Assembly (NCBI GenBank): GCA_048939765.1
Contig: JBHLPF010000013.1
Span: 1-39,106, forward strand
DNA: 39,106 bases
Origin: Promethearchaeota archaeon
GTDB lineage: Archaea > Asgardarchaeota > Thorarchaeia > Thorarchaeales > Thorarchaeaceae
Direction of reading: 5' to 3'
The notes below the pieces were generated by a model. That model had not been told where the DNA came from and did not search any database. It saw only the letters and a list, made by a program, of their open reading frames with translations. Position numbers and translations under genes: made by a program. Shown here in pieces: positions 9,686-15,555 of the stretch. Every line of letters begins with the position of its first letter. Within the stretch, counting starts at the first letter, position 1.

Positions 9686-11644
9686 CTAGTCGCCTGGATG
9701 GATCCAGTATTTCTGATAGTAGACGTACCCTCCAACAATGACTGTTGCCACAGTTCCTGCAATACCCATCACAATCACCATGGGGAGGTCATAGTGATTT
9801 GGGTTTGTACCTCGTAGGTACTCATCGAGGTTGCTGACTCCATCTTCGTCTAGGTCGTCCGATGAGTCATCGACCAATGGATCGAGGCCATTCTCCACCT
9901 CGTAATTGTCAGGCATGGAATCTAGATCGGTATCAGCACTGATAGGTGATGTCCCGAGATTATACTCAACGATGTTCGTCAGGGTGTCTTCATCAGGGTC
10001 ATCGAAAGAGTCCACTGCAAGGGGATCTAATCCATAGAACACTTCCCATTTATCATCCATGCCGTCTCCTTCAGAATCCGCACTTTCTGGGTCTGTGTTC
10101 GCATTGAACTCCTCCACATTGATGAGACCATCTCCATCAAGGTCTCCAGCGGAGTCATCTACCAGAGGATCAAGTCCATGATAGTATTCCCATCCATCCG
10201 GCATGAGATCTGAGTCTGAATCTGGATTCAGACTATCCGTTCCCAGAATCATCTCTAATCCATTTGGAAGAGAATCTTGGTCTGTGTCTTCTCTGAAAGA
10301 GTCTGGGTAGAACCACGGATAGTCCCTATCCAGATACCCATCTCCGTTGTAGTCCACATCATACTCCACATCAATCGTATAGCCCATCAAAGAAGCGCCA
10401 TCATACTCTATGACCAGTCTGTAAAGCCCCAATTGACTCACGTATGTGTCAAATATCGTTTGTTGAGTGTCTGCAGGCACATCCTCCACTGAATCGACCA
10501 ACGATCCGTCGGGACCATAAAGGTAGAAATTAGCAGTTTGGTCGGAAAGGGCTTTGACCGTGATATTGTTTGCGAGACTCATTGCGAAGAGGTACTCTGT
10601 TTCAAAGGCAGAGTTGTCAGATCCAGAATAATGAATAGATTGTTTCTTGCCAAATTCTAGTGACATGACGAATGCCATGGCGGCTCCCAGACTGGCCACG
10701 AGCTCGGTAGCGACATCATAGTCGTAGTCTGGATTGTCCCATGTGTCTCTGGACGTGTGGTAGTCATCGTCCACTCCCGACTGATACGCGAATAGAGATC
10801 TCGGATATCCTTCATGGATGAAGGCATAATGGTCCGACCGTGTCCAAGCTCCGAATTCATCTGATGGCACTGGTTTGATCATGTCATTGCCTACATTGTT
10901 GCTCATCATCTGAGCGATTTCAGCCCAGAGTCTTCCCACATGGTAGTTTTCCGTATGACCAATGGGGTACACAAGTAGCAGCTTTTCATCTGAAGGGCCA
11001 TATTCATCCGGAACAAGTAGCATGTCTATGTTATAGTAGACCAGTATCTCAATTCCTCGACTCATGAACTCGTCTGCAACCTCATAGCTTCCGCGAAGTC
11101 CAATCTCCTCAGCATTCCAAAACCCGAAATAGATGTCTAACGGCCATTCAAACTGAGACATGACCCCAGCCAACTCCATGGCTGCAGCGACGCCCGATCC
11201 ATCATCGTTGGCACCTGGTGCACCAGCTACAGAATCAAAGTGCCCCCCTACCAGCATAGCTGGGCCCCCTCCCAGATATCCAGGAAGTCGTCCGATAACT
11301 GATTGATAGGTCCCTACAACTTCCGTTTCTATATGCCCATCAGAGACTTCCTCTAGCTCGCTGATTATCCACTCTCTTGCATACGCATTTGCACTGCTGT
11401 ACTCTGTTGGCGAAGAAATCCATCTTGAACCATTCTCAGTTATCTTCTGCACATATCCGAGATAGGAATCTCGATCGACTAATGAGTGAATCAAATCAGA
11501 ATAGTCGACTCCGTACACCTCTGTGTCTGAAAGATTTCCCCCGTCCTCTCTAGTATCCACTTGATTTAGAACTGGAGACCGGGCTAGAGCTGAACCTCCA
11601 AGAAAGAGAACCAACACAAGGGAGAGAGCCCACACCCGATTCAT
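9686..11644 (-). CDS. Secreted, C-terminally anchored M28 family zinc aminopeptidase with Ca-binding repeats
   Basis: Signal peptide; HFDS, GANDDGSG, AEEIGLRGS, NIDM, SDH and YHT motifs; DxDxD repeats; C-terminal TM helix. Confidence 0.9.
   Translation of the reverse strand: MNRVWALSLVLVLFLGGSALARSPVLNQVDTREDGGNLSDTEVYGVDYSDLIHSLVDRDSYLGYVQKITENGSRWISSPTEYSSANAYAREWIISELEEVSDGHIETEVVGTYQSVIGRLPGYLGGGPAMLVGGHFDSVAGAPGANDDGSGVAAAMELAGVMSQFEWPLDIYFGFWNAEEIGLRGSYEVADEFMSRGIEILVYYNIDMLLVPDEYGPSDEKLLLVYPIGHTENYHVGRLWAEIAQMMSNNVGNDMIKPVPSDEFGAWTRSDHYAFIHEGYPRSLFAYQSGVDDDYHTSRDTWDNPDYDYDVATELVASLGAAMAFVMSLEFGKKQSIHYSGSDNSAFETEYLFAMSLANNITVKALSDQTANFYLYGPDGSLVDSVEDVPADTQQTIFDTYVSQLGLYRLVIEYDGASLMGYTIDVEYDVDYNGDGYLDRDYPWFYPDSFREDTDQDSLPNGLEMILGTDSLNPDSDSDLMPDGWEYYHGLDPLVDDSAGDLDGDGLINVEEFNANTDPESADSEGDGMDDKWEVFYGLDPLAVDSFDDPDEDTLTNIVEYNLGTSPISADTDLDSMPDNYEVENGLDPLVDDSSDDLDEDGVSNLDEYLRGTNPNHYDLPMVIVMGIAGTVATVIVGGYVYYQKYWIHPGD
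9790..10354 (-). repeat. Acidic DxDxDG (TSP3-like) calcium-binding repeats
   Basis: DYNGDG, then DTDQDS, DSDSDL, DLDGDG, DSEGDG, DPDEDT, DTDLDS and DLDEDG units with alternating 22/26-aa spacing. Confidence 0.8.
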
Positions 11645-11802
11645 AGCTGTCCAACGAGCCGCATCAACACATGAACATTTTCATTCTTGTATTTGTTCTG
11701 AAGTTGGAAGAAAACATTTGCGCATTCCAGCCGTATCCTCAAATCATATTACACAGTTACTTACTTGATTTCGGACCCAAAACGAATTGGCTGTGTAGAA
11801 TT

Positions 11803-13080
11803 ATGCCACTGACAGACTTCCCCAAAGTGGTTGAGATTAAGGATCCGGTGCATGGCTATGTAGCTCTATCCGAAGTGGAGAAGGCGGTTACAGACCTGCG
11901 ATTAACTCAGAGACTGAGAACTATTCGTTCACCTGCAGGAGTCTATATGGTTTTCTCGGGTGCTGACACTTCACTGATGGGGAAGCTGCTGGGATTCATG
12001 CATACCACTCACATTTTCATGGACTATCTGGGAGCCAGCAAGGAAGAGATTCAGAATGCTCGCCTTGCCGCAATGTTTCTTACACTTTCCACAGGTCCTT
12101 GGGAGAATGTAATCAACGAATTCTTGACAGTGCGTGGGCTCAATCGCAGACAGCTTGCCGAACTAATCATCAAGAACTCGCCTGCAGGCGAGGCGCTCGA
12201 AGATTTCGGCTATTCCCGTGATGAGGTTGCGAATACTATCAAACGCGGTGTGCCATTGAAGGGAGTTATTTTTGATCTTGAAACTACTCCAATCAATCCT
12301 GAGCTGGTTGATCGGCTTGAGCGAGATTCATATTTCTCAGGAGTTGAATATGCACAACTCGAGTTCCGGAGACTCTTCCAATCCACCAGAGTGGCGAAGA
12401 ATAAAATTGCCGTAGAACGCGGTGCATTGTTCACATTTGAGTCATATCTCTCAGCTGGGGCAAACATGTTCGATGCTGTATACTATCATAAGTCCGTACG
12501 TGCAGCTGAACTCATGCTTCTTAGGATATTGGATGAAGCAGGGGCTGAACTCGCACCTTCGCCCAGAGATGACCTCAATGCGTTCCTAAGTCTGGATGAT
12601 ATCTCTTTCTTGGACCAATTGCTTAATCCACTGGAGGATGCATCAGAAGAAATGCAGACTGCTTGCAAGCTCTTTGAAGATTTCAGCGCTAGGTACCTCA
12701 TCAAGATGGCAAGTGAACGTGCAATTAGCGATGTTGCGTTTCTGGATTCAATCTCGACTCCGGATGGACTGTTCAATATCGAGAAAGAGATTGCCGATGA
12801 TGCTGGGATCGACCCAAGTAATGTCTTTGTTGATTACCCTGACAGACAGTCTGTGAGCTTCTATCCGGGGAAATTTGACATTGAAGATCTTGTATTCTTC
12901 GAGCGCGGCTCCAAGGGCTACGAGTTCTGGCCGGTTGAAGATATCAGCTTGCTTGCAAGGAGCTTTGAGAGAAGAATCAAACTAATTCGCGTTTATACCA
13001 CTCGTGGCTATCGCTCAAAGGTAAAGAAAGCTGCTGATGCCCTTCTGGAGAGCATCGATGCTCCTGGAACCACTGATTGA
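11803..13080 (+). CDS. SAMHD1/dNTP triphosphohydrolase-like HD-fold protein with degenerate active site
   Basis: Family hallmarks IKDPVHGY, TQRLR, RDSYFSGV, VYYHKSVRAAELML and IRVY are present. The expected RFEHSLG reads SLMGKLLG and LHDxGHGPFSH reads FLTLSTGPWEN. ATG 11803. Confidence 0.85.
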   Translation: MPLTDFPKVVEIKDPVHGYVALSEVEKAVTDLRLTQRLRTIRSPAGVYMVFSGADTSLMGKLLGFMHTTHIFMDYLGASKEEIQNARLAAMFLTLSTGPWENVINEFLTVRGLNRRQLAELIIKNSPAGEALEDFGYSRDEVANTIKRGVPLKGVIFDLETTPINPELVDRLERDSYFSGVEYAQLEFRRLFQSTRVAKNKIAVERGALFTFESYLSAGANMFDAVYYHKSVRAAELMLLRILDEAGAELAPSPRDDLNAFLSLDDISFLDQLLNPLEDASEEMQTACKLFEDFSARYLIKMASERAISDVAFLDSISTPDGLFNIEKEIADDAGIDPSNVFVDYPDRQSVSFYPGKFDIEDLVFFERGSKGYEFWPVEDISLLARSFERRIKLIRVYTTRGYRSKVKKAADALLESIDAPGTTD

Positions 13081-13151
13081 ATTTTCAAAACCCTTACAAA
13101 GGGAAAGATAGAATAGCTCCTTTCATCTTGGCCACATCAGTTGTGGTCACG

Positions 13152-13583
13152 ATGAACGATGATGTTACCTCTGAGACTGGATTTGACGATGTTGTGAGAG
13201 ATCCAAACTTCTTGATCATACTTCTGGGGGCAGTCCTATGGATCTTGGGGTCCTACATCCCTTTGATTGGTCCATTCTTTATCACTGCAGGATTTGCCAT
13301 TTCAGTGCTAGCCACAGCATCTACAGCTTCTGTGCGACCACAGAGCGGGAATTGGCTGGGCTTGGCCATAGGCTCTCTAATCTACCTTGTTGGACTATAT
13401 TTGCCATGGATTCCTCTCTTGGGATTGCTGGCTCCACTAGTACGAGTTCCGGGAGCTGTGCTCATTCTCTTCTTCGGAATCCCTATTGCGCTGAGATATG
13501 GCAATGCACCCTTGATAGATACATTTCAGAGCGAGTGGAGGAAGAGATCAGAATTTAGAACTTACAAATCCAATGAAGATTAG
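13152..13583 (+). CDS. Small membrane protein (~4 TM, internal duplication), unknown function
   Basis: Two similar halves (LGAVLWILGSYIPLIG / IGSLIYLVGLYLPWIP). ATG 13152. Confidence 0.7.
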   Translation: MNDDVTSETGFDDVVRDPNFLIILLGAVLWILGSYIPLIGPFFITAGFAISVLATASTASVRPQSGNWLGLAIGSLIYLVGLYLPWIPLLGLLAPLVRVPGAVLILFFGIPIALRYGNAPLIDTFQSEWRKRSEFRTYKSNED

Positions 13584-13716
13584 TCAGAATCAAACGAATA
13601 GGTATCAATGCCAAATTACAGCATTGTCTACCTACTTACGAAATACCTAATAGACACCAAGTATGAATGAAGGAGGCAAGGACCTCCACCCTGCACGCCA
13701 CAGGAGAGGGAGTACC

Positions 13717-15555
13717 ATGTTCACTTGTAGGAAATGCAGGGAGCCTTACTTCGTACTAGCCGCCCAGACACGCGGCAGAAATCTTAGGGTCTTTTTACAA
13801 TGTATCAATGGTCACAAGGATAAACGCGACCTGTCACAATTCCAAGCTGACAATGCGGCATTTGAGTTGTTTCAAGGTCTATTCACATGTGTGCAATGTG
13901 GCTCAATTATGGATATTGCGAGCACCGATGCACATAGAGACAAAGTCGAGTACATCTTTCTCTGTCCGATTCACGGGCCTCAGAGAAGGGTGGCACCAAC
14001 CTTGTACCATCCAACAGTCAATCAGTTGCGGACAGAGGTCAATGCAGCGAAGTCAGTGCTAGATTCAATGAGCTGTCCACGTTGCGGCCAAGTGTTTGCA
14101 ATCCATGAAATTGAGGAGAAAGGCGAGTTTCTGGAGCTAAAATCGAAGTGTCCTAATGGTCATAAGGAACTACGATTTGTGGCTCGCGATGCTGATGAAT
14201 CAATAATGAAGACGGTTCTCAAACGTCTGGTTCACTGTGACACCTGTGGGCTGCCATGTAGCATTCAAGATAAGAGTTCCAAGCGCGACAAAATGCGTTT
14301 GGAACTGGTCTGTCCAGTGCATGGTTCAAGCAAGAAGGAATTCCCTGTAGCTTACGCGCCCTTACTTGATGATGTATCTCAAGCTGTGACAGAGGGTTCA
14401 CGCATTCGCACCACCTTGAGATGTTCTGACTGTGGCAAGGCGCTTTCGATTCGCAGTATCGAAGCCTCAAAAGATGAGTACAAGATAAAGGCGACCTGTC
14501 TGAATGGGCACTCGCTTGAGATGGTTCAGAGCATTGACTGGAGTGATGAAGCCACTATCGAAATCTCACAGGCGCTTCTAAAGTGCGAGAAGTGTGACTT
14601 GCTAACTGAGATCGGTTCCACGAAAGCTGATGGTACGAAAGCCGAAATCGAGGTCTATTGTCCGATTCATGGTTCTATGCGCAAAGGAATTACTGTTGAT
14701 GCACTCAAGAACTTGGAGCGAGTACAAGAGGAAATTGATAGGCAACCATCAATTGATGAAAGCCTTAGATGTGTGAGATGTGGAACTCCAGTTGTTATAA
14801 AGGAGCTAAAGGCTGGCAAGGAAACGGTAGAGGCTAAGATTGAGTGTCAAAGAGGACATGGCGATAATCGCTACTACCTTAATTCGCTCTCGCCAGCAGC
14901 TCTACTGACGGTATATGATAGGGCGTATGAATGTCATAAATGCCATCAGCCACTTACTCTCCTGGATATAGAGCAGGAAGAATCAAAGAGTACAGTGAAG
15001 ATGAGCTGCGAAAAGCACGGAGAACGAAAGCATGAGGTCCCTGTTGAGCATAGTGCCGCAGTAAGAGATGCGTACACTGCCAGAGCAACTATGCCGTTCC
15101 TTGAGTCCGCGATGGAGAAACTGGGGCATGAAGACATGTGTGAATTCCAGTTTGATGCTGGAACTGACCCCGAAGAACTGATTCAAACCGTAAAGAGTGT
15201 GATCGAGCAGCATGACCTTCACTTTGTATCAGAAGGCAAATCAAACAATATGATGTCTGCTTGGTATTACGGCATGGGCTTTCATGGCAGTCAGTTCGTA
15301 GTTGTGGGATCTGTGTCGGAGGAGAACCGGAAAATAAAGATTCGAGTGTTTTCGGATAATGAGGAGAAGCTCAGCACAATTCTGGCACACATGCGTGAAA
15401 ACCTTCGGGAAGTACTGCTCCGAATCCGCGCAGATGCAGACGACATTCAGCCACTCATCATTCAGTGCGAGAAATGCGGTGCTGGTCTATCGAAGAGAGG
15501 TCTGCCCGGCGAAACCACGCTATGTGAGCACTGTGGAGTGCCATTACACTGGTGA
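13717..15555 (+). CDS. Protein with 8 tandem Cys3His metal fingers, an alpha/beta domain and a C-terminal zinc ribbon
   Basis: Eight C-x2-C-x21-C units ending alternately in C-x2-GH and C-x2-HG; terminal CEKCG...CEHCG. SD-like AGGAGAGGG precedes ATG 13717. Confidence 0.85.
   Translation: MFTCRKCREPYFVLAAQTRGRNLRVFLQCINGHKDKRDLSQFQADNAAFELFQGLFTCVQCGSIMDIASTDAHRDKVEYIFLCPIHGPQRRVAPTLYHPTVNQLRTEVNAAKSVLDSMSCPRCGQVFAIHEIEEKGEFLELKSKCPNGHKELRFVARDADESIMKTVLKRLVHCDTCGLPCSIQDKSSKRDKMRLELVCPVHGSSKKEFPVAYAPLLDDVSQAVTEGSRIRTTLRCSDCGKALSIRSIEASKDEYKIKATCLNGHSLEMVQSIDWSDEATIEISQALLKCEKCDLLTEIGSTKADGTKAEIEVYCPIHGSMRKGITVDALKNLERVQEEIDRQPSIDESLRCVRCGTPVVIKELKAGKETVEAKIECQRGHGDNRYYLNSLSPAALLTVYDRAYECHKCHQPLTLLDIEQEESKSTVKMSCEKHGERKHEVPVEHSAAVRDAYTARATMPFLESAMEKLGHEDMCEFQFDAGTDPEELIQTVKSVIEQHDLHFVSEGKSNNMMSAWYYGMGFHGSQFVVVGSVSEENRKIKIRVFSDNEEKLSTILAHMRENLREVLLRIRADADDIQPLIIQCEKCGAGLSKRGLPGETTLCEHCGVPLHW

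Follow-up and report, generated by a model that had tools for sequence, protein, structure and literature searches.

SAMHD1-type deoxynucleoside triphosphate (dNTP) triphosphohydrolases (dNTPases) serve, from bacteria to humans, in the control of dNTP pools and in antiviral defence. Asgard archaea are the closest prokaryotic relatives of eukaryotes, and the present analysis concerns a SAMHD1-like gene from one of them, a member of the Thorarchaeota represented by a metagenome-assembled genome; the gene lies on a stretch of 39,106 nucleotides (contig JBHLPF010000013.1, positions 1 to 39,106 of the forward strand, assembly GCA_048939765.1), referred to below, over its full length, as the window. 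The encoded protein, P0001, has lost the catalytic residues of the family and keeps those that form a guanine-specific allosteric site in SAMHD1; for brevity we call the gene, its protein and the clade of its orthologues dead. In SAMHD1 each allosteric site is composed of three subunits, and the guanine pocket of site A1 consists of D137, Q142, R145 and R451, a role being assigned likewise to H376, which is exceptionally conserved among prokaryotic SAMHD1-like enzymes (PMC7854603); for the cationic residues R333, R451 and K455, the roles are taken from a further study (PMC10711556). G-containing single-stranded DNA (ssDNA) or RNA is bound in A1 via D137/Q142/R145/R451 and H376, and the dimers and tetramers of nucleic-acid-bound SAMHD1 are catalytically inactive (PMC7854603, PMC10711556). 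A matter of debate is whether the guanine-specific allosteric site does more than activate catalysis, e.g. whether it serves in nucleic-acid sensing (PMC7854603). Our literature search found no description of a dead SAMHD1-like archaeal paralogue, or of an equivalent.

The dead gene occupies positions 11803-13080 (forward strand, as are all the motifs given below) and its open reading frame translates without a stop into 425 amino acids (aa). A larger frame, of 469 aa, begins upstream at 11671, but the start was placed at 11803 because every orthologue aligned has its N-terminus at the MP.. found there. P0001 matches the Pfam family HD_assoc_2 (PF19276) with 65 bits (E 9e-18, cut-off 23.1); it has no match to the Pfam HD domain, and an NCBIfam scan returned nothing relevant. 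Among sequences of the Protein Data Bank (PDB), phmmer retrieved 2HEK (Aquifex O67745) at 3e-23, then EF1143, 2Q14, the fungal SAMHD1 9MR6 and human SAMHD1. By these HD_assoc_2 and 2HEK scores, the membership of the SAMHD1 family is far above chance. A family profile built on 115 sequences aligns end to end with human SAMHD1 (8gb1_A, 1e-72) and matches 2HEK at 5e-102; together with the phmmer search, its alignment to 8gb1_A provided the residue map used throughout. An AlphaFold2 model derived from the same 115 sequences, active relatives included, reached a predicted local distance difference test score (pLDDT) of 95.8 and a predicted template modelling score of 0.93; it replaced a run on 25 close orthologues only, for which pLDDT was 70.8 and the most conserved segment was of low confidence. 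With this model Foldseek matched SAMHD1 (human, pig and fungal 9MR6) and 2HEK in the PDB at probability 1.00 and template modelling (TM) scores of 0.73-0.78, and because the matches span the full length, the scaffold, including its C-terminal lobe, is predicted to be intact.

The catalytic centre, as mapped by alignment, is gone. Each motif string was located by translating its coordinates, and all the substitutions that an earlier, sequence-only reading of this DNA had listed for the intact 425-aa frame were found in place. IRSP (11923-11934) stands where the family has the substrate-contacting IKQL (Q149->S43, L150->P44), DTSLMGK (11965-11985) replaces HxRFxH and with it the first metal-binding histidine (H167->K61; also R164->L58), and FLTLSTGPWEN (12076-12108) replaces LLHDxGHGPFSH, so that H206 and D207 become L93 and T94, and H210 and H215 become T97 and N102. 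RR (R115/R116, 12145-12150) takes the place of HE (H233/E234), and NPELVDR (12295-12315) that of DxDxxDY, with D311, the fourth metal ligand, changed to E167, K312 to L168 and Y315 to R171; D170 in this motif, the equivalent of D314, is still present. With R366->G219, nine substrate or catalytic residues (Q149, L150, R164, H210, H215, H233, K312, Y315 and R366) are all changed, and with its four metal ligands replaced P0001 lacks the H..HD..D signature. Inside the dead clade most of these nine positions are variable, as is S43; P44 and N102 are invariant.

These losses are not peculiar to one genome. The sequence-only reading had itself named the finding that would contradict it, namely that orthologues keep H..HD..D while this copy alone is drifting; when examined, all orthologues proved to lack the signature, and its loss is clade-wide. 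A database search yielded more than 250 homologues at 58-96% identity, the named ones nearly all labelled ‘Candidatus Thorarchaeota archaeon’, and none of 25 aligned orthologues (mean column identity 72%) carries the HD motifs. In an exhaustive profile search of 1.8 billion representatives the dead proteins formed one tight cluster (616 bits), the next score down being 277 bits; among the top 150 representatives, all full-length ones outside the dead clade keep H..HD..D, with the exception of the HD-dead P0125. When presence was called at E <= 1e-80, 71 of 85 genomes of the Thorarchaeota family f1, representing all of its 16 genera, had a dead orthologue (49-94% identity); the 314 genomes examined from 32 further families of the same phylum (Asgard) had none. 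The f1 genomes without it are mostly 52-88% complete, and three (G038, G041 and G269) are 92-93% complete. A match to P0125 at 78% identity was found in the sister family f2, of which one genome was sampled. As the f2 gene adjoins the same OFOR alpha/beta genes as the dead gene and lies near a homologue of its 648-aa neighbour, we take it for a positional orthologue; it is found at L048:9219-10460 (G002:C20), encodes a P0125-like protein of 413 aa and is also HD-dead. In a FastTree phylogeny the f1 dead clade and the f1+f2 clade are each monophyletic with support 0.998, on stems of 0.60 and 0.59, respectively, to be compared with a median internal branch of 0.105.

Neither has the gene been left to decay. 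The ratio of nonsynonymous to synonymous substitution rates (dN/dS) is 0.04-0.08 for the dead gene versus 0.02-0.06 for an active paralogue in the same genome pairs, and in unsaturated within-genus pairs (dS 0.2-0.65) the values are 0.05-0.08 and 0.03-0.06; conservation and dN/dS among the orthologues, the check that had been proposed for this gene, thus indicate purifying selection and maintenance in all 16 genera. The active protein evolves more slowly (mean pairwise identity over 26 matched genomes of 76%, versus 59% for the dead one). The frame is unbroken in about 70 genomes across all these genera. A look for RNA runs containing the sequence listed none, which speaks neither for nor against its expression. 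The only broken copy seen is that of G029 (C4:160524-161781), where the orthologue comes in two adjoining pieces covering residues 4-203 and 203-422, by either a frameshift or an assembly error. In-frame TAG codons suspected in the G026 and G014 orthologues were rejected as interruptions, being the natural stops of slightly shorter proteins. A decaying pseudogene, or a lineage-specific drifting copy, could account for the lost catalytic motifs and for the split G029 orthologue; we give it practically no credence, since the orthologue alignment, dN/dS and genome distribution refute it, and the fold is modelled as intact with high confidence (pLDDT 96). The dead protein is very probably a maintained pseudoenzyme, as the sequence-only reading had supposed: it is homologous to an enzyme family whose essential catalytic residues it lacks in every orthologue, it is kept under purifying selection and occurs in the f1 genomes counted above, its predicted fold is intact and active paralogues reside in the same genome. 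It is a paralogue of the archaeal SAMHD1/EF1143-type dNTP triphosphohydrolase, whose build is HD plus HD_assoc_2.

What has been kept is of more help for guessing at its function. DLRLTQRLR (11893-11919) aligns D31-x4-Q36-R37-L-R39 with SAMHD1 D137/Q142/R143/R145, i.e. with the guanine pocket of A1; within the dead clade Q36, R37 and R39 are conserved at 100% and D31 at 88%. The fourth residue of this pocket, R451, and the cationic backbone contact K455 correspond to the ends of R297-Y-L-I-K301 (12691-12705), both 100% conserved. YYHK (12481-12492), i.e. Y227-Y-H229-K230, is the equivalent of Y374/Q375/H376/K377, with H229 conserved at 100% and K230 at 84-90%, and E187-F-R-R190 (12361-12372) that of D330..R333, which belongs to allosteric site A2 and contacts nucleic acid; here E187 is invariant and R190 is conserved at 88-100%. 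Kept residues of A2 further include V50 and F51 (V156 and F157), beside E187, R190, H229 and K230. At the level of sequence only, therefore, the A1 guanine residues and the H376 equivalent (D31, Q36, R39, R297 and H229) are all present and 88-100% conserved. The assignment of D-x4-QR-x-R and YYHK to D137/Q142/R145 and H376/K377, already made in the sequence-only reading, was upheld by two alignments; its claim that the allosteric residues are kept can be extended to the equivalents of R451, K455 and R333 (R297, K301 and R190), and holds only in part for the f2 orthologue, where the H376 equivalent is lost.

The contrast between the two pockets was also seen when 55 positions conserved at >=80% in 87 active relatives were compared with the dead clade. 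Twenty-eight of them are identical there, including D14, P15, Q36, R37, R39, D170, R174, D175, R190, Y227, H229, R297 and K301. The conserved positions that contact metal or substrate are all substituted, except the equivalents of D319 and Y374 (D175 and Y227), and 12 one-time active-site positions are variable within the clade. Retention amounts to 2/20 family-conserved positions in the catalytic pocket versus 8/10 in the allosteric pocket (Fisher p = 3e-4; the grouping was assigned by ourselves from the SAMHD1 map and p is only indicative). Along the protein, the one-time HD region has a conservation of 0.66 in the dead protein and of 0.85 in the active enzyme, and residues 161-250, which hold the RD motif, E187, R190 and YYHK, one of 0.84 versus 0.89. 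Q36, R37 and H229 are conserved at 98-100% in the active relatives as well; since such signatures are family-wide (cf. PMC7854603), the retained residues represent an ancestral constraint that was kept, not an innovation. That the guanine tetrad was retained as a set speaks for a regulatory pocket still in use, and the variability of the old catalytic pocket speaks against a new catalytic use, i.e. for a pocket that was relaxed rather than repurposed. One could nevertheless imagine that the remodelled pocket (P44, W100, N102, N165 and E167) runs another reaction, perhaps metal-independent or with a single metal, the replaced positions P44, W100, N102 and N165 being invariant in the clade and E167 being a residue that could still ligate a metal. 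We hold this to be very unlikely, because three of the four metal ligands are now non-ligating and variable (K/R/G at 61, L/F at 93, T/S/M at 94), the 12 one-time pocket positions vary freely and E167 itself is conserved only at 69-85%.

The reading that we prefer, with a probability of roughly 0.55, is that the dead protein, as an oligomer and without catalysis, binds guanine nucleotide or G-containing single-stranded nucleic acid. The precedent comes from SAMHD1 itself, whose dimers and tetramers on nucleic acid are G-specific and catalytically silent (PMC7854603, PMC10711556). The paralogue would most likely go back to the ancestor that the members of one Thorarchaeota order share, would have lost the four metal ligands along with the residues that bind substrate, and would since have been kept under purifying selection. 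It would oligomerise via the ancestral interface, and the ancestral inter-subunit pocket would bind guanosine triphosphate (GTP), its deoxy form dGTP or G-containing single-stranded nucleic acid without hydrolysis, so that the protein may act as a nucleotide or nucleic-acid sensor or as a scaffold. Its output could pass through a clade-specific C-terminal surface (about residues 348-417), serving as a new partner interface, or through joining an active paralogue.

Several points, besides the reservation made above about the grouping of positions, weigh against this binder reading. Several phosphate ligands of A2 are gone (R352->E205, K354->G207, R372->A225), although the active archaeal paralogue lacks them too. 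The orthologues share ancestry, so that counts of conservation are not independent, and residues retained family-wide might persist for the stability of the fold or of an interface alone. The dead protein is acidic (mean isoelectric point of 5.5, versus 5.6 for the active paralogue), which gives no support to general nucleic-acid binding. Finally, in the f2 orthologue H229 is replaced by N, and N-P is found where YYHK has H-K. The N-P pair suggests that the function of this protein may have diverged further. Its first metal histidine equivalent and the D/Q/R/R of the N-terminal motif are still present; the equivalents of R297 and K301 are ambiguous, a one-residue shift of the alignment flipping the result, and only H229->N is clear.

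The C-terminal lobe brings in another possibility. Clade-specific positions, defined by a conservation of >=95% among the dead orthologues and of <40% among active relatives, number 51; they are invariant in the dead clade only, and many of them lie at residues 348-417, e.g. in FERGSxGYEFW. In P0001 this block reads FERGSKGYEFW (12898-12930) and belongs to a beta-hairpin of the model (strands 363-368 and 373-377). The cluster suggests a new conserved surface. It might be that the dead protein is a pure scaffold that has lost nucleotide binding too, the ‘allosteric’ residues merely stabilising the fold or a homo-oligomer and the function residing in this surface, which might bind the membrane or zinc-ribbon proteins encoded by two frequent neighbours of the gene. 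The family-wide character of the retained signatures, the 51 clade-specific positions and the loss of the H376 equivalent in f2 would all fit. We find it unlikely all the same: the guanine tetrad is kept together at 88-100%, stability alone would be a less likely reason for keeping polar pocket residues, and at 3 of 16 loci both neighbour genes are missing, one or the other being absent at several more.

The binder reading leaves room for a partnership with an active enzyme. Two other genes with HD_assoc_2 are present in the host genome (3.37 Mb, 108 contigs), located on contigs C37 and C46, one encoding a protein of 431 aa (L001:1468-2763, reverse strand; HD_assoc_2 3e-22) and the other a protein of 495 aa (L002:691-2178, forward strand; HD_assoc_2 2e-17), both with an intact H..HD..D and a match to Pfam HD. 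The 431-aa paralogue is the nearest in-genome relative of the dead protein (30% identity, E 2e-51), and its type is present in 61 of 61 genomes of the order searched. At the position of SAMHD1 D137 it has Asn in about half of 26 genomes, where the dead copies have Asp in 88%, so that the two paralogues may not have the same allosteric base specificity. The dead protein could be a regulatory subunit which, in hetero-tetramers with the 431-aa enzyme, would contribute allosteric half-sites and no active sites, and so tune dNTPase activity. The three-subunit make-up of the allosteric sites in SAMHD1 (PMC7854603) would lend itself to such mixing, as Q/R/R, H, K and R..K are found in the dead and the active protein alike, which also share length and architecture, the active one is present in every genome searched, and D in the dead copy versus N in about half of the active ones could give a mixed specificity. 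The two genes, however, are unlinked, on different contigs, and at 30% identity with long stem branches the conservation of a hetero-interface is uncertain, so that we consider this arrangement rather improbable, if somewhat less so than the pure scaffold.

The surroundings of the dead gene were compared at 16 fetched orthologous loci. They share a collinear backbone made of OFOR alpha/beta, an M28 peptidase gene, the dead HD gene, a gene for a 168-aa membrane protein, one for a 630-aa zinc-ribbon protein, UbiX and a 648-aa gene, of which the peptidase, membrane and zinc-ribbon genes are variable. In the window a predicted multi-pass membrane protein of 168 aa is encoded at 13077-13583 (forward strand), its listed TTG start giving a 4-nucleotide overlap with the stop of the dead gene; it has no match in Pfam, and its gene was detected at 9 of the 16 loci. 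It is followed at 13663-15555 (forward strand) by the gene for the 630-aa zinc-ribbon-like repeat protein, with about 8-9 units of the form CxxC ... C(P)xHG and internal repeats of roughly 118 aa, for which no Pfam family scored above cut-off and which adjoins the dead gene in 11 of the 16 loci. Both are missing in G001, G007 and G010, and the zinc-ribbon gene also in G005 and G055; an obligatory module of dead HD, membrane and zinc-ribbon genes was rejected, since three loci do without both downstream genes. On the reverse strand, a divergent gene at 9686-11644 encodes a 652-aa protein that combines a Peptidase_M28 domain with Asp-rich TSP3/EF-hand-like repeats and has a hydrophobic anchor at its C-terminus; it looks secreted or membrane-anchored and is variably present across the orthologous loci. 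PADLOC found no defence model for the dead protein or its neighbours (the active paralogues match dGTPase weakly), which leaves membership of a defence system unsupported.

If the binder reading is carried further, the dead protein would be a natural separation-of-function SAMHD1, a sensor of G-nucleotides or of G-rich ssDNA/RNA that works on its own or in hetero-tetramers, where it would be the non-catalytic partner of the active dNTPase. We put this forward tentatively, as one possibility and not the likeliest outcome. Were it true, the debate on a non-catalytic nucleic-acid-binding role of human SAMHD1 would concern a role that is ancient and that selection can act on by itself. The family is confined to one order of uncultured archaea and its function is one that we infer; it would add a pseudoenzyme to the nucleotide metabolism of Asgard archaea, and a lineage-wide paralogue without catalysis but with the guanine site offers a natural test case for non-catalytic function.

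Among described systems, the nearest in build are the prokaryotic SAMHD1-like dNTPases (COG1078; O67745/2HEK, Enterococcus faecalis EF1143/2O6I-3IRH-4LRL and Bacteroides 2Q14), which have the same two-lobe HD + HD_assoc_2 organisation and the same length as the dead protein and share with it the DPxHG, QRLR, RD, YxHK and RxLxK motifs; in the dead protein, by contrast, the four metal ligands and the substrate residues are replaced and the Pfam HD match is missing. The 431-aa and 495-aa paralogues of the same genome belong to the same family but keep H..HD..D together with Pfam HD. At 17-19% identity, human and fungal SAMHD1 (4ZWG, 7A5Y, 8GB1 and 9MR6) are more distant and have in addition a SAM domain, a C-terminal regulatory tail, the catalytic centre and R352/K354/R372, all of which the dead protein lacks; yet the structural likeness extends over the full length (TM 0.75-0.78, probability 1.00), and SAMHD1 D137/Q142/R145/R451, R333, H376, K377 and K455 all have their equivalents in the dead protein.

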